Part shown: positions 1 to 24,500 of the stretch, in pieces | Position numbering within the stretch: position 1 is the first letter of the stretch | How the letters are laid out: each line of letters begins with the position of its first letter | From: Paramecium tetraurelia | Taxonomy: Eukaryota | DNA length: 27,865 nucleotides | NCBI GenBank assembly: GCA_000165425.1 | Contig: CT868219.1 | Location: 500,728 to 528,592, forward strand | Reading direction: 5' to 3' | Made by a program: the position numbers and the translations under genes | The notes under the pieces: model-generated | Database searches by the model: none | What the model was told of the DNA's origin: nothing | Seen by the model: the letters and a program-made list of their open reading frames with translations, nothing else

Positions 1-963
1 CCATTTCTTAGCATCTACATCCAATACAAAAGTATCATCAACTAATCTACTTGCTGTTCTGTTACCACCTTCTTTCGAAGTTACCAACTTGTCCACCAAA
101 AATGAAATATTTCCATGATGGAATAGATGGCACCATAATACCTGCCATATTCCACTTAGGTATTTCATGTGATATTTCTGGATCTACCCAACTATTATTA
201 TTAATATCATATATGATGACATTTTAAAATTGCGAAATTTGATTCCATCCGCCAAAAATCATGAGTAAATCATTCTATCCCATAATTTAAGAATTGTGTC
301 CTCCTCTAGGGTCAGGTGGTGTTCCACTAGGTTCTAATTGTGACCATTCAAAACTTTCACAATCTAAAACATATAAATCATTGAATGATTTAGTTGCATA
401 TCCAACTCCTCCATGTCCTCCGAAAACATACACTTTGTTCTTATGAAATGTTGCTGAATGATTTCCTCTTGGTTCTGGTGCACCAATCTTAGATTCAGCA
501 TTTTTAGGTTCCCCAGTTACTTTTTAATTGGGTGGTTAAGACCATTAGAAATTAGTAGTTCTTAAGATGAATGTGTCATTAAAACGGAGATTTGATGTAT
601 AGAACCCACCAAAAATAAGCATTTTCTCAGGAGTAATGGCGCATGCTGCATGATTTGTTCTTGGCAGTGGTGGATCACCAGAACATTATACTAACTTCCA
701 TTCACAAACATTTGGTGCTACTCTCAACGAATATACTTATATGTTAATTACAATATCTACCTTAATTATTTGGTGCTATCTTTGTATTTTTCTTTTCTGC
801 ATCTGGTTTCTTCTCGCTGTCTAATCCTCCAAAAAGAATGTGAGTTTTTCCAACAGTTACAAAAGTATGACCTGATCTAGGTGCTGGAATTTGTCCAGAT
901 TGCTTCACTTATACCCAAACTAATGGTTGTGGCTGTAAAAAGATATGAACATATATATACCAT
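1..963 (-). CDS. DYH5: 5' part (N-terminal kelch beta-propeller) of an outer-arm axonemal dynein heavy chain, Tetrahymena DYH5 / Chlamydomonas alpha-HC type; runs off the window
   Basis: Ciliate-code translation with introns 933-960 and 736-760 gives MPQPLVWVQVKQSGQIPAPRSGHTFVTVGKTHILFGG...PLPRTNHAAC...MLIFGG...PEPRGNHSAT...VYVFGGHGG...PDPRGGH...VPSIPSWKYFIFGG. These are kelch repeats matching my recollection of the DYH5 N-terminus. The motor domain is not in the window. Confidence 0.85.
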
Positions 964-7310: not shown

Positions 7311-7471
7311 TTATTTTTAATATAAGAGAATATATTTGTTTATGTGAGGGGGTTGTGTGTGTCTATGTAAAAGGAATGTGATAAAATACTTTGAATTATT
7401 CTATAAATGTTTATATACGATTAAGATAAAATATAAGCAAAAACAAAAGTTTATTATTATTTTTATTTTGG

Positions 7472-10333
7472 ATGAAAAGTAAACATGGATAAGCTCAATT
7501 AATAAACAAGTAAATTATGGGAGTGGGTGGAAATGGTGCTTTAGCTACACAAGTCATAAAAACAAAAAAGAGAGAATTCTAATATCAGCAAATCGATTAG
7601 TTACAGCAAAAGAAAAATTAGATTTTACAGCCCAACCAATAGAACAAGAAAGAGATTGCTGCTACGAAAATATTTAGATTTTTGTATAAAATTTATAAAT
7701 AGTATTATTTTAATAATCATTATTTAAGAAAAGAGAAATAACATCGGTATCGAAATTTTGTAATTGAAGAGTTGATAAATACCGAAAGAAATTATTTAAA
7801 TGATTTGAAATTATTAATTGTCATCTAAAGTTAAGTTAAACAATGGCTAAACAAACAATAAATTGAAATAATATTTAATAATCTCCAATAATTGTATGAA
7901 TTAAATAGCTCTTTTCTTTAAGATTTAGAAGGGTTTCTTCCTTATAACAGATCCAAATTATTAGGTCCAATAATCAAAGGATTAGCTCCTTTTTTTAAAG
8001 TGTATTTCCCATATTATGAAGGATTCAATAAATCTATGGCAACTCTTAAATAATGCATAAATGATAAAGAAGACTTCAGAAAATTTCTAAAAAATATGTC
8101 CTCAATCAAAGACTATAATAATTAAGATATTGACAGTTTTTTAATTAAGCCTGTTTAAAGGATACCCAAATACAATCTCCTCTTAGAAGACTTAATAAAA
8201 CATACTGACAAAATTCATCCTGATTATAAAAATTTATGCGAGAGTTTAGAACTTTTTAAAAATATAAACGATGATAACAACAAAAATATGGATAAATTTT
8301 TATCCAGTAAATTGTTTGATATGGAGAAATGGTTTGGAAATAAACTAAGCTAGAAATTAGTAGATACTAAAAGAAAATACATCACAGAACTTTTAACATC
8401 AATTTTAGATCAAACTAATAAAGTCATCATTGTGACTGCTTTTATTCTTAGTGATTTAATCATTATTGGAGAAAGATAGGAAAATCAATACCAATATATA
8501 TAGAGTGTATTTTTAGATGAACAAAGTGGATGTTTAGATGTAGAAAATTAATAACACCTTTAAAATATTTACATCTTATAGGGTATGAGAGGGTAATCAA
8601 TTACATTTATAGAACAGACACCAAATGATAAAATTGAAAAAATGGCTAAGTTACAAAAAATAATTCAAGAATGCAAAGAGAAATCAAAATATACCTTTTA
8701 AAGGCAAACAATTCGGGCAGGGTCTGAAATAAAGGTATAATTAAATAAGATTAAAGTGACTGTGTTAGGTCTTGATGAAAGACATGAAAATTTGAGTAGT
8801 TATAAAGTATATATAATTGAAGTTGGCATCGAAGAGGTTTTTTAGAAATTATTTTTAAGATTTAGTTAATGTATTAAAATTTAGGATTATATTAAAAAGA
8901 AATACCCAACGACCTAATTAAATTTCTTAAAATAAAATACAACTTTGAGTTTATTGAATGATTAAAAGGAAATTGAATCAAGGATGATCGCGATTCCTCT
9001 TTTTGTTTAATCTGTTCTAATATCTGATATTACAAGACAGAATCCATAAATTTTGAAGGACCTAGGATTACCTGAGAATTTTTATGATTTGCCATCTGAG
9101 GCTGATAATTTTAGGAATCAAAGAACAGGCAATCAAAAGGCACCTGATAGATTCAATTATGTGACTCCTACTAGAACACTGATTAAGACATTTGACTATG
9201 GAAATGATTAATAATCTCTTTAGAGTAATTAATGCAATCGTAGATTATTAAGCGCCTCCTCGATGATGAGTAGAAATATTACTTTAGTAGAAGAAAAAAA
9301 AAAGTAAAAAGAAAAGGATGCTATTTCAATCATAGTAAATCATGCTATACCTAAAGAAAAGCCTTGGGAATTTAATGTTAAAAATAATACTAAAGTGTTG
9401 CACGTATTAGACTAGATTTAGAAGGTAATGTAATTGCAATAAATATATGACTTTAAATTATATATTTATGACAATAAATCTAGAGTGAAAATATTGTAAA
9501 ATGATGAAAACATATGTGATTTATTTGGGGATAGCTTTATTTTTGCAAAAAAAAAGAAAGAGCTTTGGTTTAAAAAGCTCTTGTATTAAGATATAGAATA
9601 TGAGAAGACCTTGTTATAGGCTGATAGTGCTAGGATGAAACTTTTATATTACTAATTAGTTAAGGACATCTAAATTTCTACATTACCATTTCCAACTTAA
9701 AATTAATATATTAAATTAGCTGCCATTCATTTGTATTTATAGAACTGCAATCTCTCTTATAATGTCATACAATAAATCATCCCATCATCCATTTTATAAC
9801 TTAAGTAAAGAGAGTATTGGAATTGTGTTGTAACCTAAGAATTCAAGGAATTCAAGTCAGGTATTTAAAATACTTAATCCACACTAATTCAAATCAATGA
9901 AACTGAAGATATTGCAAAAGCTAAATCAAAAGGCATTTTTTCATCAATCATTCAATCTAATCAAAATCAATTTTCCTAAATTGAGAATGTTAATGTTGAT
10001 TCAACAAAAGTAATGATTCAGTTTATTTAAGAATGTTTGAAAAACGAATTTTGCATTTAATAATTATTTTCAATTGTTTGCAAAGAAACTTTGACTTTAT
10101 TTGGCGAATAAAACTTATTTCTGGGTATTGGTTATCATGGAATTCGACTCTATAGTAGCTCAAAGGATAGAATATGGGAAAAAATCGATAAACCACAATC
10201 TTTCAATGTTTTCCCAGGATCTATCGAAATTGGATTTAAAGGTAGGAAGCTTAAGTTTGAAACAAATTAAGGATTTCAAATCTAATCTTTGTTTGATGAA
10301 TATTAAGCAATCAAATCTTAGAATTAAGAATGA
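7472..10333 (+). CDS. RhoGEF (DH-PH) protein with an IQ-like motif, a PX domain and a C-terminal FERM-like domain, ~950 aa
   Basis: DH signatures RNFVIEELINTERNYLNDL and FLIKPVQRIPKYNLLLEDLIKHTDKIHPDY; PX-like YKVYIIEV...LRFSQ; FERM-like ELWFKKLLY...KLLYYQLVKDI...KLAAIHL...LKFETNQGFQIQSLFDEY. TGA at 10331-10333; optional 27-nt intron near 7702. Confidence 0.88.
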
Positions 10334-10405: not shown

Positions 10406-11840
10406 ATGAAGCAAAATGAAAATATCGAAGATGAATCTGAAGATAAGTATGAAGTAAAAAGGGATATATTAGATAATTATATGTACCATTATTTCCTATG
10501 AGAAAAAAACCGTCATCAGGATCTAGTCAAATATCTTCACAATCCACATCATAATCAACTTAAATGCTTACCTAATATAGAAGTATGTAAGATTCAAACG
10601 AGAAAAGAGAATTAGAAGCTACAATAATAAAAGAACTCATGAAAGATAAACGATCATCTGAATTCTATGCTGTTCAAGAAAATTGGATTTCATAATATAA
10701 ATAATATTTATATCAAAATGGAGAAAGACCAGGAATTTTAGATAATAATAATTGTACTTAATACATAATTGTGAATGAGGCAGTTTGGATTTTTTTTAAA
10801 TAAGAATATAAAGCTCATCCAGAGATTATTTGCAGATAAAAACATTCAAGAACAAATGATAAAAGATCAAAAACAGTAGAACCTACTATAAATCGTTAAT
10901 CCTGCTCTAATTCTTAATCCAATTATGAGTTGCCTCTGATAGGGATGAAAAATGATTCTTATTATTGTTATATGCATTCTGGATTACAATCCCTCTTAAG
11001 TATAGCTGATCTGAATTATTTTATAATCAAATACATCTAAAGGATAAATAAATAATAACTAATAGACAAAAAAAAGGTAAATGGAGTTTCATTTACTTGG
11101 GCTTATTTCGAATTAATTGAATAAATCAAAGCAAGTACTATTCCTATTAAAATTAACACTATTAAAACTCTGATCATAAGTTAATTTCATCCAAAAAACC
11201 AGCACGATTGTCACGAATTCTTACTATATTTATTAGGACATATTGAAGATGAAATATTAAATTTCAACAAGGAAACTAAATCAACTTATATAAACTTTGT
11301 AGAGTAGATCTTTAAAGGTAGCAAACTTTATATTTAATAGGAAAGCTTTAGACAAACATTATATGTCAAAATTGTAAAAATAAAGTAAAGTAAATTGAGC
11401 CATTCCTCACTTTATCATTAGCCATTTCTCAATCCAAAAGTCTTGAATAATGTCTTGAAGAATTTCTAAAAGAAGAAACTCTCAAAGATTATAAGTGTAC
11501 AAAATGTCAGTCAACTTGCATAAAGAGCCTTCAAATTGTTTCTATTCCATCAATACTAGTATTACACCTGAAGCGATTTTAATTTTTACCCCAATGCCAT
11601 AAAAACAACAAAACAATAACATATCCTATTGATATCCTAAATTTTGGCAATAAAACTTATAGACTCAGAGCAGTTATTGTTCACACTGGGAATTTATAAT
11701 AAGGTCATTATTTCACATTTGCAAAAAGATATCACTAATGGTTTCTTTTTAACGATGAGACTGTGAAAGCAGTTACAAAAAAATAAGTACTTATGCAAGC
11801 AGCATATATCCTCTTTTACTAAATTAATGAGAATCCATGA
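10406..11840 (+). CDS. Ubiquitin-specific protease (peptidase C19) with DUSP-like N-terminal domain, 461 aa
   Basis: Cys box GMKNDSYYCYMHSGLQ, QHDCHEFL, zinc-ribbon CQNC/CTKC, LVLHLKRF and His box VIVHTGNLQQGHYF...WFLFNDETV...AYILFY. DUSP-like YIIVNEAVWIFFKQEY. Introns of 26 and 23 nt. Confidence 0.92.
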
Positions 11841-12366: not shown

Positions 12367-12843
12367 NNNNNNNNNNNNNNNNNNNNNNNNNNNNNNNNNN
12401 NNNNNNNNNNNNNNNNNNNNNNNNNNNNNNNNNNNNNNNNNNNNNNNNNNNNNNNNNNNNNNNNNNNNNNNNNNNNNNNNNNNNNNNNNNNNNNNNNNNN
12501 NNNNNNNNNNNNNNNNNNNNNNNNNNNNNNNNNNNNNNNNNNNNNNNNNNNNNNNNNNNNNNNNNNNNNNNNNNNNNNNNNNNNNNNNNNNNNNNNNNNN
12601 NNNNNNNNNNNNNNNNNNNNNNNNNNNNNNNNNNNNNNNNNNNNNNNNNNNNNNNNNNNNNNNNNNNNNNNNNNNNNNNNNNNNNNNNNNNNNNNNNNNN
12701 NNNNNNNNNNNNNNNNNNNNNNNNNNNNNNNNNNNNNNNNNNNNNNNNNNNNNNNNNNNNNNNNNNNNNNNNNNNNNNNNNNNNNNNNNNNNNNNNNNNN
12801 NNNNNNNNNNNNNNNNNNNNNNNNNNNNNNNNNNNNNNNNNNN
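12367..12843. other. Assembly gap (477 N)
   Basis: Run of N. Confidence 1.
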
Positions 12844-14502: not shown

Positions 14503-17500
14503 TCAAATAAGTTAACAGCAACTAGAATCTACTCTTTCAGTATTATGACTATTATTTTTCCTAATATCTATTACTTATTTTTTCTGGGGTTGAATTGCAT
14601 CTTAAATTACAATTCTAAATTTTTTGGTATTTTGTTATGTTAAAATTGCATCACTATTAGATTCTAAATATCTTAAGATTCTCAAAGAATCCTAAATTCC
14701 TCTTTTCCAATATTCGGACTCAGAGTTTGTCTCATAGTTACTCTCTAGAATTGATAATTTAACAATATAAGGACTTAATGCACCTTATTCAAAATCATCA
14801 TTATTATGGGGGTTTTGCATTTTAGCAAGTGCTATAGCTGCAAATTGAATTTCTCTCTCTTATTCAGAAGGAGAAACAAAAAATTTTTATTAAATTTTGT
14901 TTAGTGCTTACATTCTAATTTGAAACTTATTTTCTTTTGCTTTTTCAACCACATAATCTAATGCTGCATTTATAGCATTGAATGTTGTTCCTATAATTGG
15001 TACAGATCCCATGATAAATGAACCAGTGCTTGACATAGTTTTTAGAAAGTCAGCCACTTTTTCAGAATTACTTTCTATCATAGCATCTCTGTTTATTGTA
15101 AATAGATTAGTTGACATTAATTGCATTGCATGCAAATAATTATATAAGCGCCAAAATAAGGATTTATAATATAAAAATTATTAAAAGTTCTCTGGTTTCT
15201 TTAAAATATTTAATTCTTCTTCTAATTAGTAAGAATCTTATTCCTATAATTTCTAAACCTTAGATTCTAATTCTAAAATTTTTTCTTTTGATACCTTTGA
15301 CTCTTTTTCTAACTTATCATATAATGCTTTTACATCTTATTCTATTTTAAATAAGAAATCCAATATTTATTATTATTAATCCTTATTAATTTATTCATTA
15401 GTTGGTTTCATACCACTAGCCGCTTATTCTTAAATCTTATTGATTTCTAATAAAAATGCTTATTCTTATTATTAGTTAATTGAGTTATTTTTTGCTAATT
15501 GAGAAACATTGTTTTTTGCTATTTAAAATTGACTGTCAATTTCAGAAATCAACTTTAATTTACTTTAAATAAATCTAATATTTGCAGGTGAAAGATTTCT
15601 ACATTTGAATTTTGAATCAATAATTTATTCCAAGCAGCCTTAGGCTAATGAAAAAAAATTTTTAGCTTTAATGTAATCCTTTTGATGATAGTATAAACTA
15701 CCAAGATTAGTAAGATATAATGGATTCAAAGGATTTATTTCTATGGCCTTATTATAATCTTTGATAGCTAATTCTATTTTACCATCATTCATATACAAAT
15801 TACCTAGATATGTTGAATAATTAAACCTCTAGAATTATAAGTATCAGAATGAGCTTAATTTCGTTCTAATACTAGCATATAATCTTTTAGAGCCTTTTCT
15901 TTTTACCCCAAATTATAATATAAATTACCTAGATGTTTTTAACAATTATACCTCTATTATAAAGAGAGTTGACATATTTTGGGTTGAGATCGGTAGCCTT
16001 ATTATAGTCTTTAAATGCTTCATCCATTTTATTCAACTCTTTAAACAAAATGCCTGAACTAGATTAACTTCTTACCTCGACTATTATAAGCCTCTACATT
16101 TTAATTGTTAAGTTCAATAGCCTTATTAAAATCATTAAGGGCCTCTTGATTTCTCTCTTGTTTTCTAAATAAAACCCCTATTTTGATTGAGTAAATTAAA
16201 ACCTCTGTTACAATATTTATTGGAGCTTTAAGGATCAAGTAAAATAGACTTATTATAATCATTAAGGGCTTCTTAATCTAAGCCTTAATCGCTGAAAAGA
16301 TTAGCTAGGGTTATAACTGTAAATTAACCTCGATTATTATATGTGTTAGAATTATTAGGGTCTAATAAAAGAGATGTATTGAAATCAATCATTGCTTCTT
16401 TATCCTTTTCCAAATCATGGTAGATGTTACCTAAAAGAGTTTGGGTTAATTGTACCTCTGCTATTAAAGGCCTAGGCATTTTTAGGATCCAGTTCAATTA
16501 TTTTATCTAAATCATTCAACGCTTCTTAATATTTTTTTTATTTTTGATATAGCAATGCTTTGAATGATAATATAGCATACCTCTATTAAAATAAGCATTA
16601 ATGAATTGAGGGTCAAGATCAATAGCTTGTTGATAATCATTGAAGGCTTTCTCAGTTTGTCCCATTTTCTCCATTAAATCAGCTAAAAATACAAATCCAT
16701 AAAACCTCTGCACTTAAAGAGCTTAGCATCCTTAGCATTTAACTCAATTGTCTTATTAAAACTCTTTAAGGCATCCTCAATCTTTCCAAGTTCATCTAGT
16801 AAAATTCCTAGAATAAATATAAATAATGCCTCTATTATAATATGCACTTTAATAAGAAGGGTCTAATCCTATTGCATTATTGTAATCTTATATTGCTTTC
16901 TCTTTTTAACCTACTTCATCAAGTAAAATAGCTTTAATAACTTTGGTGAAATTAACCTCTATTGTAGTATGCTTCAACATTAGGATGTATTTATAGCATT
17001 TTATTGTATGAATTTAAGGCTTCTTCTTTCCTTCCAAGTTTTCTCAGAATGATTGCTTTGTAAAATTTGATTAAATACCTTGATTAAAGTAAGCATTTTT
17101 ATTTTCTGGGTCTAGTTATATAACCTACTAATAACTTAATAGAGCATTCTCTTCTTGTCCCAATTCTGTTAACAATAATGCTAAGCACAATTTAATAATC
17201 ACAATACCTTTATTATAGTGAGCATCCTTATTCGAAGGGTTTAATTCAATTGATTTAGTAAAATCCTATAAAGACTAAATTTTATTTTTCTCCATTAGAA
17301 GAAATCCTCTCCTAAAATAAGGATTGGCATTATTGGGATTTAGATCGATTAATTTATTGTAACAATTAATTGCCTCATCATTTCTACCAAGTTTTTTTAA
17401 TAAAATGGCTGGTCTATCAAATGACAAATACCTTAATTAGAATAAGCATCTTGTTCTTGTGGTTTAATCTCAATTATTTTCTAATAACTATTTATTGCAT

Positions 17501-18345
17501 CTTCATCTCTTCCCAAAGTATTTAAAATAATGGCTTGCTTTAGCTAAACGATTACCTAAATTATTGTAGGCATTCGCATCATTAGGATTTAAGCTAAGAA
17601 CCGTGTCATAATCTTTAACAGCATCTTCTAATTTGCCTAACTTATTTAAAGTCATTGCTAATAATAGATATAAATTAACCTCTATTAAAGTAGCAGTTTT
17701 CATGATTTGGATTGAGCTGGATTACGTTATTGTAATCTTTTAAAGATTCTTCATTATTGCCCAAATTTGAATTAATGATACCTATTTATAACGTCTTAAT
17801 TGTAAACCTCTTTGATAGTAGGCATTTATATATGTAGAATCTAATTCTATTACTTTATTTAAATCTTTAACAGCTTCTTCATTCTTTCCTAATTTGTATA
17901 AAGCAATTGATTTGTTGTAATATGCATTTACATAGTTTGAATCGATTTATATTACCTTTTAATAATCTTTTATAGCTTCTTCATTCTTATTTAAATCCAA
18001 TAATAAATTTGCTATAAATATCATGTATTCTTACCTCTATTTTAATAAGATTGGATTAAATTAGAATCAAGCTCGATAGCCTTGTAAAATCTTGTAACGC
18101 CTCCTAATTTAAATTTTATTCTTTGTGACACCATCCTATTTATTGCATTTTGATAAATGATACCTCTATACAAATATGCAGAAGCAAGCTTTGGCATTAG
18201 TGTTAGAGCCTTGTTTGCTTCCTAAATTGCTTGGTCAAATTTATTTTCTTTAAATAAATCCTTGAATTAAAAATAATTCTACATAGCTCAAATCTAGATG
18301 TTTGTATGCTTGATTTTGGTTAGCATTATCCTAGTTTTAAATCAT
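14503..18345 (-). CDS. TPR-array protein (~22 repeats, 20 exons) with coiled coil, helical C-terminal domain and CaaX box; one apparent frameshift, so possibly a pseudogene or sequence error
   Basis: Repeats of the form G/A-x6-G-x2-EEAxxDYxKAIELxPxxxxAYxNR; 19 introns of 22-28 nt; last exon 14503-15803 ends ERVDSSCCQLI*. Exon 3 is 101 nt instead of 102. Confidence 0.9.
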
Positions 18346-19823: not shown

Positions 19824-19842
19824 NNNNNNNNNNNNNNNNNNN
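19824..19842. other. Assembly gap (19 N)
   Basis: Run of N. Confidence 1.
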
Positions 19843-20243: not shown

Positions 20244-21812
20244 TCACCATTTGATTTCGCGGATTTGATATCTCTTGAGGTCTTCAACATAGGCTATCAG
20301 GTATTTGCCATCATTAGATAACGTTGCAAAAATCAAGTTTGTATCAAATTTTTATTTTGTAACAATTTGAAGATCGGCATCAGTGATCTTGATAATATAA
20401 ATATGTCGCTTAAATCTCACCAGAAATACTTTCTATAATTAATTATAGGTGATGGGATTAAGATGATAATCAACATATTATTCTTCATCAATATCCAATT
20501 AGAAGGCTTTCTATTAATTATTTTCAAACTTGCCATCTCTTTGCGATTTAAAGAAAAATATTTAATCATTAGTTTTTTAATCGCAGCCCATCCAAACAAA
20601 CTAGTCATCAGAAATGAAAGCAACTTTGGTACCATAAGTTATTTAATTAATTTCTTGAACAAATTTCCATTTTTGAGCTTAGTCATCCTTTGTCCAAATT
20701 AGAATTTTATTGTCTGCTCCACAAGTAACCATCTTATTTTCTTTTTTATTTAAGGTTAGATCAAATATTGTATTTTAATGAGTGTTCTCCAATGAATAAT
20801 TATAAATTAATTAATTTTAATTGAAATCCACGCTCCAAAAATCGATTTCGCAATTAGCACTAGCTAAAATCAATTCTGTTTCATTCTTATTTAAAACTAT
20901 GCAATTAGTCCATTATGCTGGTTTCTTTAAAAATTCCCATTCCTTTTCGTTCTTTTACTTCCAAATTATTAGAGATCCGCATTCTGCTGCAGATATAAAA
21001 CTGTTCTTTACTTTGCTACTAGTCACAATTCGTGTTACAGATAATGCATGACCATTAAGTTTTGCATGCTCTTACATATTTCCTTAATTGAAGTTCCAAA
21101 CTTTAATTTGTTTACCACATCCAGTAAAAAGAAATTCACTATTAAAGGTTAAAGTATAGCAAGGATCTCTTTATTTTACCGTCGTAATCAAATCTAAATT
21201 TAAAGGTTTATTTAATTCATCATAATTCCTTCTATAAAATTCTTGAGTTTTCTTTAGGACATTTTCTGACATTTTCTCTAGGTTAGATGGAAATGTTTCC
21301 AATTTTCTTTTCAATTTTCCAAATTAATTGATTATTTTTGATCTTATTTGCTTTACCTTTTCGTTTTCTTCTGTTGATTAATCCTTTGTTTAAATATAGA
21401 TTTCCAATTCCTCAAAGAAACTGTATTTTAAGTTTTTTTCTCTTTCACTTCTTAAAGAATCTGTTAATTTCTATACTATTTCTTTCATTGATTCAAAATA
21501 ATCATTTATTTTTTCCATAACACTATCAATATTCTTTTCTAAGTTTTTTGCATATTCTAAACTTTCCCCCCCAACAATAATATCTGTGTTTTCACATCTC
21601 TTTTTCTTTTCCTTCTTTCAAAATTTCGGACTACTGCTTCATAATCTTAGACATTAATATTTTGTTGTTCTTGCAAACACAAATTGCAGGCTAGTCTCTA
21701 ATTAGGGGTCTTTGTTTTGATCCATTATAACCTTTTCTGGCTTATTTTTATGCTGTTAGCAAACCAAATCAACAGGCGCATCGGTCATTTAAGATTTAAA
21801 GTCGGTGCTCAT
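20244..21812 (-). CDS. WD40-repeat protein with N-terminal CxxH...CxxC motif and coiled coil; the 5' end needs two cryptic introns or is frameshifted
   Basis: WD repeats FLFTGCGKQIKVWNF, LNGHALSV...GSLIIWK and HQNTIFDL...MVTCGADNKILIW; ends REIKW* at 20244. The unspliced frame has two TGAs near 21620-21642. Confidence 0.8.
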
Positions 21813-22891: not shown

Positions 22892-23227
22892 TTCTTAATA
22901 TACAGCTAATTTCAATAATGTTTAAAATTGCTTAATAAAATGCTCAAACTTGCTGTCCTTTATTATTCATAATTTAGAACCAAACCATAAGAATTTGAAT
23001 AATTAATTTTTAATTAAATCAAATATCTTCTATATTATATCAGATCATAAATTTAATAATAACTAAGTTAATAACACACAGCAACACAGGAAGAATATTA
23101 ATATCTTGAAAATCATTTTGTAAGATAAAAATTAAAATTAATATAAATATTTAAGAATTAGAAATATTAACAAAATTTGTAAATTCAATGATTTTTTATA
23201 GAATTTTTTCAAGATAATTAAAATAAA

Positions 23228-24500
23228 ATGGGAAATAATTAGGCTAGTAACTCAAAAAAAAGGAAATCTGGAATATCAGCCTCATAATTTGGAGATATAT
23301 TAATTAAAACTGATAAATCATATTATTTCTCTGGCGAAGTCGTAATCGGTATTCTAGGTCCATTTACATATATAGGAAATATCTATTTGAATGTAATTAA
23401 AGATGGATTTCCAGGTTGCGTTGTGTACTTGAGAGTCTCTGGCAAAGAGAAATGTTAATGGACAGAAACAACAACAAACACATCATCAGACTCAGATGGG
23501 AACACAACTGAAAGTACATCTACTTCTACATATACTGGAAAGTCTTATATTTATTAACACAAGTTGGTAATACATAATTTTGAAAGTCCTTCACTCCCAT
23601 TAGGATAATTCGTATTTCCTTTTTAATTTTAACTTTTATCTCATCTTCCTAGTTCATTTTATTAAAATGACGTAGCATAGATTAGTTACAAAGTTAAAGC
23701 AGCTATTTAATCTAAGAAGTCCTCTTTAAATTGTATAATGAGCATTTAAAGATTAATCATAAGAGAACCATTAAGACAAAATACACAACCTTTGACTGGG
23801 AATATGTAGATTCATTCTTAGGATTGCTGCTTTCCAAGTGATGGGGTATTAAATATGTTCTATTTATAGGTTTGTCTCATCAATTGTAGTATAGACAAAC
23901 ATAATTATCTTCCAGGAGATGTAGCGCATTTAGAAATAAATATTGATAATTCGAGTTTAGATGAGCAAATTACTTCAATTTCTATTATTTTTTTGAATAC
24001 TTTGACATTAACTGATGATTCGGGTCGCTAAAAACTCTAAAACTGGATAGTTCAAAAGAATGAGATCTAAGGTGTTGGACCAAGAAGAAAGAGTTAAAAA
24101 AACGTACGGTTTCTTTTACAAAATAATAAATCACCTTAAGAAATATAACCATCAGCTAATGGCCGATTAGTAAATTCAGTGTATTCAATATTGATTAAAG
24201 TTAATCTAGAGTGTAAATTATATGATATTTTTAGCGGATTCATGTTGCTTCAAAGAGGATCCATTAATTACTTTTCAAATATAGATTGTTGCTGCAGTTC
24301 CTTAAAGTACGGATCCAGTTTTAATTGAACCTCCTGATTGGAATCCTTAAGTGTTTTCAATATAAAAAGTCTATCTTACTGATAGAAACAAGTAGACTGG
24401 AAAAATCTTAAATTAAGACGACTAAAATGGATAACATAAAAAAAATGACTGTATTAAAGGGAATTCAGTCCTTGATATCTAATAATAAATGCAGGAATGA
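23228..24500 (+). CDS. Arrestin-domain (alpha-arrestin-like) protein, 399 aa, predicted N-myristoylated
   Basis: MGNNQAS start; YFSGEVVIGNIYLNV, SGKEKCQWTE, PIGQFVFPFQFQLLSHLPSSF...ISYKVKA, IDKHNYLPGD, PSANGRLVNSVY, PPDWNPQ. Introns of 27, 24 and 22 nt. Confidence 0.88.

Follow-up and report, generated by a model that had tools for sequence, protein, structure and literature searches.

An Array of 102-nt, Phase-1 TPR Exons in a Paramecium tetraurelia Gene, the Probable Relic of an Old Exon Amplification

The window considered here, the whole 27,865-nt stretch of DNA that was analysed, contains a macronuclear gene of Paramecium tetraurelia which lies on the minus strand and is read in the ciliate code (TAA and TAG as glutamine). 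It consists of a long series of short TPR-coding exons followed by a single last exon that carries the end of the array and the C-terminal part; the reading unit and its exons are as follows.

14503..18281, minus strand: whole modelled reading unit, from the ATG at 18281 to the TGA at 14505-14503
18164..18281, minus strand: exon 1, 118 nt from the ATG, first TPR unit, ending ..Y-R|G
18035..18135, minus strand: exon 2, 101 nt, not symmetric, shifts the frame
17808..18011, minus strand: exon 3, 204 nt, a pair of TPR units not split by an intron, Pfam TPR
17680..17781, minus strand: exon 4, 102 nt, one TPR unit, Pfam TPR
17556..17657, minus strand: exon 5, 102 nt, Pfam TPR
17432..17533, minus strand: exon 6, 102 nt, Pfam TPR
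17208..17408, minus strand: exon 7, 201 nt, a pair of TPR units (34 + 33 aa), Pfam TPR
17079..17180, minus strand: exon 8, 102 nt, Pfam TPR
16957..17055, minus strand: exon 9, 99 nt, a 33-aa unit, Pfam TPR
16830..16931, minus strand: exon 10, 102 nt, Pfam TPR
16706..16807, minus strand: exon 11, 102 nt, Pfam TPR
16581..16682, minus strand: exon 12, 102 nt, Pfam TPR
16456..16557, minus strand: exon 13, 102 nt, Pfam TPR
16329..16430, minus strand: exon 14, 102 nt, Pfam TPR
16203..16304, minus strand: exon 15, 102 nt, Pfam TPR
16076..16177, minus strand: exon 16, 102 nt, Pfam TPR
15952..16053, minus strand: exon 17, 102 nt, Pfam TPR
15827..15928, minus strand: exon 18, 102 nt, Pfam TPR
14503..15803, minus strand: exon 19, 1301 nt, intronless, coding for the final two TPR units and everything downstream of them (linker, C-terminal domain, stop codon)

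The 17 internal exons measure, in order, 101, 204, 102, 102, 102, 201, 102, 99 and nine times 102 nt; 13 of them have exactly 102 nt, including the run of nine, and the thirteen 102-nt exons with companions of 204, 201, 99 and 101 nt are precisely what the first-pass annotation had described. At E ≤ 0.01, Pfam recognises a TPR in 16 of the 17, the 101-nt exon 2 being the sole one to yield no match. The units are tandem 34-residue helix-turn-helix repeats of the Pfam TPR_1/TPR_11 clan, and residues 1-26 of an exon align to TPR_1 positions 9-34, which places the exon borders 8 residues inside the Pfam unit. Equal-length exons divisible by three, together with a single intron phase at one and the same repeat position, give the locus the organisation of an exon-unit array. 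The symmetry that had been ascribed to the exons holds for those of 102 nt, any of which could be gained, dropped or skipped without disturbing the frame, but fails for the 101-nt exon, which is asymmetric and breaks the frame.

The exons are separated by 18 short intervals of 22-28 nt, located by script, all of them in phase 1 and all following ..N-R|G.

18163-18136, minus strand: intron 1, 28 nt, GT..AG, phase 1
18034-18012, minus strand: intron 2, 23 nt, phase 1
17807-17782, minus strand: intron 3, 26 nt, phase 1
17679-17658, minus strand: intron 4, 22 nt, phase 1
17555-17534, minus strand: intron 5, 22 nt, phase 1, acceptor AAG
17431-17409, minus strand: intron 6, 23 nt, phase 1, acceptor CAG
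17207-17181, minus strand: intron 7, 27 nt (3n), phase 1, no in-frame TGA if retained
17078-17056, minus strand: intron 8, 23 nt, phase 1
16956-16932, minus strand: intron 9, 25 nt, phase 1
16829-16808, minus strand: intron 10, 22 nt, GC..AG (not GT), phase 1
16705-16683, minus strand: intron 11, 23 nt, phase 1, removed in public models
16580-16558, minus strand: intron 12, 23 nt, phase 1, removed in public models
16455-16431, minus strand: intron 13, 25 nt, phase 1, removed in public models
16328-16305, minus strand: intron 14, 24 nt (3n), phase 1, no in-frame TGA
16202-16178, minus strand: intron 15, 25 nt, phase 1, removed in public models
16075-16054, minus strand: intron 16, 22 nt, phase 1, acceptor CAG, removed in public models
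15951-15929, minus strand: intron 17, 23 nt, phase 1, removed in public models
15826-15804, minus strand: intron 18, 23 nt, phase 1, removed in public models

In all 18 cases, the insertion point falls after the first base of the Gly or Ala codon that follows ..N-R, AG closes the exon on the donor side, and a codon starting with G is completed from the first base of the following exon on. The proposal of 18 consecutive phase-1 introns at one TPR position is borne out in phase and position for all 18 intervals; of the accompanying N-R-G|gt...ag pattern, the junction codon recurs at all 18 sites, while the donor of intron 10 departs from it. Intron density reaches 7.6 per kb, and the claim that it lies above that of the neighbouring genes is correct, as these are unbroken reading frames of 983, 457 and 378 codons; the 1301-nt last exon of the same gene also lacks introns. 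Introns are absent at 3 of the 21 unit junctions, among them the one inside exon 7, where the R-G junction is intact. Intron cores are 0.530 identical to one another as against 0.524 after shuffling, i.e., they show no likeness beyond chance. The 27- and 24-nt intervals are the two that are multiples of three and are free of in-frame TGA.

Removing all 18 intervals ends the reading frame after 176 aa. The cause lies in exon 2, the first half of which is TPR-like in the spliced frame and the second half in another frame; it looks like a 102-nt exon that has lost one nucleotide. Because 28 + 101 = 129 preserves the frame, intron 1 must probably stay in for an intact reading frame. With intron 1 kept and the other 17 intervals spliced, an ORF of 1125 aa is obtained, which comprises 22 classical TPR units, probably arranged as an N-terminal superhelix, a coiled coil, the C-terminal domain and a CaaX box. 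Were intron 10 left unspliced, a TGA would follow and the product would be a 432-aa TPR-only protein. The splicing status given here to introns 1, 7, 10 and 14 is putative.

The part of the protein that follows the repeats is encoded entirely by the last exon and comprises three elements.

15202..15588, minus strand: coiled-coil linker, predicted as a long-helix, three-helix segment (model residues 13-141 of the 373-aa query)
14518..15219, minus strand: all-helical C-terminal domain of about 200 residues, from predicted structure, with no Pfam family
14506..14517, minus strand: CaaX-type box at the C-terminus, with Cys at position -4

The C-terminal domain is modelled with a pLDDT of 81.9 and a pTM of 0.80, and searches for its fold returned no informative structural or sequence relative, the best structural match having a Z of 4.1. 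The C-terminal 373 aa match 56 clusters among 1.84 billion representatives. In the family thus delineated, TPRs were found in 27 of the 36 members scanned and an enzymatic or signalling domain in none of the 36; of 10 members looked up, all 8 that bear a species name are from Paramecium. Of 61 family sequences, 30 have Cys -4 and the remainder are mostly fragments; the residue is invariant in a five-sequence alignment. A STAND/NLR-like (NB-ARC-TPR) immune receptor was considered as an identity for the gene and was rejected, there being no NTPase or signalling domain here or in the 36 scanned family members. Two family members carry an OGT/SPINDLY-type name, which in both cases is a UniRef auto-label. 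Like the OGT and SPINDLY superhelices, the present protein strings together many canonical 34-residue TPRs without interruption, and a conserved Asn stands at the second position ahead of the Gly; unlike them, it has no glycosyltransferase domain, its C-terminal part being an unrelated helical domain with a CaaX box. In OGT, the ladder of conserved Asn residues lines the peptide-binding groove. The Paramecium protein could be a prenyl-anchored scaffold, in which a putative TPR groove would bind peptide partners at the membrane; prenylation, membrane location and peptide binding are all putative.

The public protein models of P. tetraurelia (736 aa) and P. octaurelia (704 aa) span exons 11-19 only, and both thus appear to miss ten upstream TPR exons. 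In both species, introns 11, 12, 13, 15, 16, 17 and 18 are removed exactly as drawn here, and intron 14 is kept as eight coding residues that are identical between the two; the first ~24 residues of the P. tetraurelia model are a wrong-frame reading of exon 10. Two lesions lie in the 5' half (exons 1-10), namely the 1-nt deficit of exon 2, offset only when intron 1 is kept, and the GC donor of intron 10, and these may explain why the public models start at exon 11. The locus could also be read as one in which only exons 11-19 make a functional protein, with exons 1-10 either a remnant in decay or the source of a second, TPR-only product, terminated just past the GC interval when this is left in. 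We hold this to be rather unlikely, despite several points in its favour: both public models begin at or after intron 10, retention of which stops the frame at 432 aa; the 101-nt exon 2 has no Pfam match; an orthologue of the N-terminal part (exons 1-10) was looked for and not found; and read depth rises to 4.88 in the last exon, compared with at most 0.91 in the TPR exons. That difference in depth is, however, expected, as 58-nt reads cannot cross the junctions of 102-nt exons and a 3' bias adds to it. Exons 3-10 run over 338 codons with no in-frame TGA, where the regional background (41 TGA per 2330 codons in three genomic frames) predicts about 6, and all of them score as TPR. The RNA reads at the locus, 11 and 39 from two oligo-dT libraries, always have their first mate on the plus strand, as a minus-strand RNA would give; bins as far as 17683 are covered, and same-strand reads fall in the bins holding exons 5 and 8-10. 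A separate downstream gene, for its part, would have neither intergenic space nor an in-frame start. None of the 50 RNA reads is spliced, so that the splice sites of exons 1-10 are read from the DNA.

Two systems of repeat-coding exons offer themselves for comparison. In Tetrahymena, the passages of Xiong et al. (2019, PMC6564038) consulted here describe LRR arrays of exactly 90-bp exons, for which a clonal amplification of the exon/intron unit was proposed, and date the first detectable expansion of these exons after the split between Tetrahymena and Paramecium; the two ciliate systems are therefore independent. They share tandem exons of fixed 3n length, a near-uniform phase and a split junction codon, and differ in that the repeat is here a TPR of 102 nt in phase 1 and there an LRR of 90 bp in phase 2; according to the same passages, Tetrahymena has thousands of young genes with nucleotide conservation and species-specific expansions, in contrast to the one locus with 54% exon identity described here. 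Among the candidate receptors of Ectocarpus, of NB-ARC-TPR/ROCO type, 21 TPR exons of 102 nt (34 aa) are mentioned in the part of Zambounis et al. (2012, PMC3341825) that bears on them. There, too, one repeat is encoded per equal-length, frame-preserving exon, but the main TPR exons are of 126 nt (42 aa) and adjoin an NB-ARC domain, and there is evidence of exon shuffling between loci; the Paramecium gene has no NB-ARC or signalling domain and its orthologue is colinear. That TPR genes of Paramecium have per-repeat exons is already in print: the legend of Fig. 8E in Vitali et al. (2019, PMC6771405) places an IES at the 5' end of nearly each of the "TPR coding exons" of P. tetraurelia, and a passage of Arnaiz et al. 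(2012, PMC3464196) attributes multi-copy IESs to TPR repeat expansion or recombination. The passages concerned do not mention the 102-nt length, the uniform phase 1 or the present locus, and the old identifier of the gene is absent from the two supplement files searched for IES-dense TPR genes.

As to the origin of the layout, the reading that we favour, and which we consider probable, is that of an ancient and now stable TPR array, joined to a linker, an all-helical domain and a CaaX box in a small family of which every named member comes from Paramecium, the exon layout being the fossil of an amplification. The ancestral unit would have been one 102-nt TPR exon in phase 1/phase 1 with its tiny intron, tandemly amplified long ago; the intron position would have been inherited ever since, with the intron lost at three of the 21 junctions, and the array would by now be stable, its exons some 54% identical, its introns sharing only splice signals and its sibling species having the same repeats in the same order. 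In the absence of residual intron similarity, duplication of the exon-plus-intron unit, which seems the best explanation of the layout, would be deduced from intron position only. The public models of the family agree with an intron position that is shared family-wide: unit-to-unit gaps are of zero length in 128 of 156 cases and insertions of 6-11 aa occur six times, five of the six lying exactly at the exon junction and starting with G, as expected of a retained 3n phase-1 intron; two of these five belong to other P. tetraurelia paralogues. A proto-splice site (..AG|G, from the conserved R/K/Q-G codons) might alternatively have drawn independent intron gains again and again to the same place, which would suit the AG exon end and the G-starting codon in 18 of 18 cases, the introns with no similarity beyond chance and the three intronless junctions, one of them (exon 7) with its R-G intact. 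It is highly improbable all the same: inheritance is a much more economical account than 18 separate events that all hit one and the same of 102 positions and spare the rest of the ~2.2 kb that code for TPRs. The final 1.3 kb of the gene, moreover, is intronless, paralogues carry insertions at this junction too, and in an array whose exons are down to 54% identity, introns as short as 22-28 nt would soon cease to resemble one another.

The first-pass annotation had gone further and seen in the array a rapidly diversifying sensor, that is, a fast-evolving recognition or immune-type receptor whose symmetric exons are actively duplicated, lost, swapped or skipped to vary its specificity, a mode of evolution proposed for the 90-bp LRR exons of Tetrahymena and the LRR/TPR exons of Ectocarpus. 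The uniform phase and the 102-nt length of 13 of the 17 internal exons speak for it, as does the variation in the family, with 1-16 repeat units in public models as against 22 here and from ~95 to ~1385 residues N-terminal to the C-terminal domain, though these length differences may partly be due to annotation truncation, as shown for this gene. The published passages on P. tetraurelia are also in its favour, since in one of them TPR genes harbour IES copies that arose as the repeats expanded (PMC3464196), and in the other they are the genes densest in IESs, retention of which changes with temperature (PMC6771405). The sequences themselves make active shuffling improbable. At the DNA level, the 102-nt exons share 45-64% identity (mean 0.537, maximum 0.637; 0.43 at third codon positions), and exons or introns still alike in DNA, as a recent clonal expansion would leave, were not found at the locus; this divergence and the intron cores at shuffled level point to the absence of recent duplication or conversion, and no pair of 102-nt exons exceeds 63.7%, whereas the young LRR exons of Tetrahymena retain nucleotide conservation in the passages cited (PMC6564038). 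In the P. octaurelia orthologue P0011, nine units (E12 to E19b) are colinear, with 28-34 of 34 residues identical, so that in this comparison of exons 11-19 with P. octaurelia no change of repeat number or order between close species was seen. Identity is 89.7% in the TPRs (297/331), 88.0% in the linker (132/150) and 93.5% in the C-terminal domain (201/215), and the 34 differences among the 331 TPR residues are scattered over 21 of the 34 positions; TPR identity is at least that of the linker and comes close to that of the C-terminal domain. Rapid diversification finds no support in these figures, and the repeat order shared with an orthologue, which the first-pass annotation had itself named as an observation that would count against it, is seen in part, for nine units. 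Nor is the word sensor sustained, as a search for NB-ARC, NACHT, ROCO, kinase, TIR or other signalling domains gave none, Pfam finding only TPR families in all exons.

On the favoured reading, of an old and now stable array, the locus is a clean ciliate example of an exon structure that records its own origin and parallels the independent 90-bp LRR exons of Tetrahymena. A "shuffling-ready" layout can outlast the shuffling, and because it persists after shuffling has stopped, exon symmetry by itself is no evidence for ongoing diversification. The locus also defines a family that combines TPRs, a domain of unknown fold and a CaaX box and that is so far, among named members, found only in Paramecium. 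A bolder extension, which we regard as quite improbable, would be a Paramecium-specific class of prenyl-anchored TPR proteins with a new-fold domain, in which each repeat, with its phase-1 intron and possibly a germline IES, serves as a cassette and the number and content of the repeats are varied somatically. The variation would come about by exon skipping, by optional retention of stop-free 3n introns (27 and 24 nt) or by temperature-dependent IES retention and, if this were true, a single gene would supply several membrane scaffolds that differ in their binding grooves. Intron retention in P. tetraurelia is thought to be policed by translation. With its GC donor and its stop-free 3n introns, the locus provides test cases for splicing.

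Eighteen short intervals, each a putative intron recognised by script, interrupt the minus-strand TPR gene (14503-18281; exons and introns are numbered from its 5' end), the first beginning at 18163 and the last ending at 15804. Their lengths range from 22 to 28 nt with a mean of 23.8, and every one starts after the first base of a glycine or alanine codon, directly behind ..N-R (or K/Q/L). The dinucleotide AG closes the exon side of the donor in 18/18 intervals; the donor itself is GT in 17/18 and GC in 1/18 (intron 10), while the acceptors are TAG (12), AAG (4) and CAG (2). The 17 internal exons measure, in order, 101, 204, 102, 102, 102, 201, 102, 99 and then nine times 102 nt, so that the 13 exons of exactly 102 nt counted in the first-pass annotation are recovered. 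Its description of gt..ag introns lying in a single phase holds for the codon position, which is the same in 18/18, and fails for the donor of intron 10. An alternative GT..AG interval of 40 nt would bypass this GC donor and keep the frame, but it would remove the conserved A-Y-Y-N-R-G with which exon 10 closes and was judged less likely. The regularity of exons and introns is correct and lies far beyond chance. Two of the intervals have a length divisible by three:

17181-17207, minus strand: intron 7, 27 nt, free of in-frame TGA; its retention would add nine residues and no stop
16305-16328, minus strand: intron 14, 24 nt, free of in-frame TGA; its retention would add eight residues and no stop

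Together with the GC donor, these stop-free intervals are useful test cases for splicing.

The window is AT-rich, with a GC content of about 0.23-0.29, and its reading frames are open only under the ciliate code; the very low GC in the 12-13 kb bin is caused by the longer of two runs of N. The neighbouring genes and gaps are as follows:

38-904, minus strand: neighbouring reading frame, Kelch-repeat protein
7382-10333, plus strand: RhoGEF; its FERM match is weak and falls below the cutoff
10453-11571, plus strand: neighbouring reading frame, ubiquitin hydrolase with a DUSP domain
12367-12843: assembly gap, N run of 477 bases
19824-19842: assembly gap, N run of 19 bases
20244-21617, minus strand: WD40 protein
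23192-24328, plus strand: arrestin-like protein

All five neighbouring frames contain long intron-free stretches, and no second TPR gene occurs among the 16 frames scanned in the window. Interval density reaches 7.6/kb in the array, against unbroken frames of 983 (RhoGEF), 457 (WD40) and 378 (arrestin-like) codons nearby, which bears out the higher intron density claimed for this gene; in the gene's own last exon (1301 nt) it falls to 0.

When each internal exon is scored alone, 16 of the 17, including exons 3, 7 and 18, match a TPR family of Pfam at E <= 0.01; the 101-nt exon is the only internal exon with no such match at this cutoff. Exon residues 1-26 fall on positions 9-34 of the TPR_1 profile, and an exon thus represents one repeat period, shifted by eight residues relative to the Pfam unit. 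The gene contains 22 units and 21 unit junctions, 18 of which carry an interval; the three junctions that carry none lie inside exons 3, 7 and 19.

The gene is not intact in the form first drawn: when all 18 intervals are removed downstream of the ATG at 18281, a frameshift arises at the 101-nt exon and translation ends after 176 aa. Retention of the 28-nt intron 1 (28 + 101 = 129) gives an intact ORF of 1125 aa that terminates at 14503. Failure to splice the GC interval of intron 10 would end the product after 432 aa. Exon 2 is TPR-like in its first half in the spliced frame and in its second half in another frame, and its sequence looks like a former 102-nt exon that has lost a single base. 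The segment made of retained intron 1 (28 nt) and exon 2 (101 nt), at 18035-18163 on the minus strand, totals 129 nt and exactly offsets this one-base deficit; such compensation may reflect an intron turning into coding sequence, or an indel in the assembly. Exons 3-10 run for 338 codons free of TGA; the background is 41 TGA in 2330 codons over the three frames of the region, a rate at which exons 3-10 should contain about six, which argues that the 5' half is not old junk. The start codon could be either of two. A second candidate ATG lies upstream at 18345 (18282-18345, minus strand), and it could be connected in frame with the TPRs by removal of a phase-0 GT..AAG interval of 22 nt.

Public gene models cover the second half of the array. 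The C-terminal exon retrieves a protein of P. octaurelia, P0011 (704 aa), at 93% identity; the public P. tetraurelia model P0074 (736 aa) belongs to the same 90% cluster and has the sequence of the window's exons 11-19, which identifies the window as macronuclear DNA of P. tetraurelia. Neither model begins before intron 10: P0011 starts inside exon 11, and the opening residues of P0074 (about 24) translate exon 10 out of frame and read on across the GC..AG interval (16808-16931, minus strand). Taken together, these two starts suggest that the public annotation lacks ten TPR exons upstream, a likely case of under-annotation. With exons 1-2 as query, only six weak TPR matches were returned, none labelled Paramecium, and no orthologue of this part was found. 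Intervals 11, 12, 13, 15, 16, 17 and 18 are removed in both models with borders exactly as found here; the 24-nt interval 14 is coding in both, as eight residues identical between the two species.

From two raw oligo-dT libraries carrying the same species label, 58-nt reads mapped to the region, 11 from one and 39 from the other. The first mate lies on the plus strand in all of them, which fits minus-strand RNA, and coverage extends over bins from 14582 up to 17683, deeper in the last exon; transcription of both halves of the gene from the right strand is indicated. Among these 11 + 39 reads, no joint rose above the listing threshold, and no indels or variants were listed. Two contig runs were also searched: one gave no matching contig, the other just a pair of fragments, 18 and 21 nt long. 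None of the runs listed as containing the stretch is catalogued as RNA. Twelve unlabelled runs (contigs of about 27-50 Mb) contained 0.47-0.67 of the sampled words, where a completely spliced mRNA should by calculation give 0.73 and exons 11-19 by themselves 0.50; these shares are suggestive and were set aside, two such runs having shown nothing usable on alignment.

Symmetric one-repeat exons had led to the proposal of a shuffling-ready, rapidly diversifying recognition protein, and the two analogues cited for it are real. In the Tetrahymena study, tens of thousands of LRR exons of exactly 90 bp, more than 96% of them separated by phase-2 introns, are explained by repeated clonal expansion (PMC6564038); the Ectocarpus study describes candidate receptors in which each exon encodes one repeat, among them TPR exons of 126 nt (124 exons) and of 102 nt (21 exons) (PMC3341825). 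The gene itself does not bear the proposal out, as its orthologue is colinear over the comparable units, TPR divergence there is not in excess and no sign of recent exon duplication was seen. The thirteen 102-nt exons have DNA identities of 45-64% (mean 53.7%), their third codon positions are 43% identical where base composition alone gives about 30%, and intron cores show no excess likeness (identity 0.530 vs 0.524 when shuffled); nothing in the exon and intron DNA within the gene points to a recent duplication or to conversion. The nine comparable units (those of exons 12 to 19) are colinear with the P. octaurelia orthologue, 28-34 of 34 residues being identical in each. In the TPR part 297/331 residues (89.7%) match this orthologue; the linker matches at 132/150 (88.0%), the C-terminal domain at 201/215 (93.5%), and the 34 TPR differences fall on 21 of the 34 repeat positions. 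Fixed repeat number and order, named beforehand as speaking against diversification, are found together with unexceptional divergence in the comparable half of the array, as judged from residue identity rather than dN/dS. Paralogues P0012, P0002 and P0003 gave no resolution of unit-by-unit orthology, best matches stacking on a few consensus-like units.

The most likely reading of the array is that of a relic of ancient amplification, in which a unit of exon plus intron would have been multiplied and the present exon layout handed down, in a TPR family so far known only from Paramecium. The layout does not testify to a sensor that is diversifying at present. Exons that each encode one repeat have already been seen in TPR genes of Paramecium: Vitali et al. 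report TPR genes as the most IES-dense of P. tetraurelia genes, and their Fig. 8E legend mentions TPR coding exons, nearly all with an IES at the 5' end (PMC6771405), while multi-copy IESs are ascribed to TPR repeat expansion or recombination (Arnaiz et al., PMC3464196). The literature searches turned up no account of the 102-nt, phase-1 pattern; a mention in supplementary files is possible.

With the last 373 residues as query, 56 clusters were matched among 1.84 billion representatives; of 10 members looked up, 8 were named and 8/8 are from Paramecium. TPR families occur in 27 of the 36 members scanned, and no enzymatic or signalling domain in any of the 36. In public family models the gap from unit to unit is zero in 128/156 cases. 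Insertions of 6-11 residues between units number six, and 5/6 lie exactly at an exon junction with Gly first, as expected if a phase-1 interval with a length divisible by three were retained; two of them come from P. tetraurelia paralogues. In the public models of the P. tetraurelia paralogues P0012 and P0003, insertions of 7-8 residues open with Gly at the precise R|G border between units, and they resemble phase-1 introns of 3n length that were never spliced out of the models. Across the family, the intron position seems older than the paralogues. Family models contain 1-16 TPR units, compared with 22 in this gene, a spread that may partly reflect truncated annotation, as it does here.

Directly after the TPRs, a bundle of long helices is confidently predicted (373-aa model: pLDDT 79.4, pTM 0.65), for which VIA-align, over residues 4-128, returned nothing but helical bundles of a generic kind (the best Z, 11.7, does not reach what the tool treats as meaningful for helical proteins). 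The protein ends in two elements:

14518-15219, minus strand: all-helical C-terminal domain (238 aa modelled alone: pLDDT 81.9, pTM 0.80)
14506-14517, minus strand: CaaX-type box at the protein C-terminus

The domain has no Pfam family and no sequence relative in the PDB (best E-value 0.86). Foldseek gave no match at E <= 0.001 for the 373-aa or the 238-aa model, and in the VIA-align comparison of the domain with 48,161 PDB representatives no chain reached Z 5 (best Z 4.1); as modelled, it may represent a new fold. A likeness to the Bcl-2 family, seen in weak rows only (E above 1, TM about 0.2), was dropped. Cysteine at position -4 is present in 30/61 family sequences, most of the others being fragments, and is invariant in a five-sequence alignment, which points to lipid anchoring common to the whole family; from the CaaX-type box and this cysteine we infer a prenylated, membrane-anchored TPR scaffold. 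The likely ten under-annotated upstream exons and a CaaX-ended C-terminal module of no known fold are of value beside the array itself. Family proteins often have one or two extra cysteines just upstream of the CaaX-type end.
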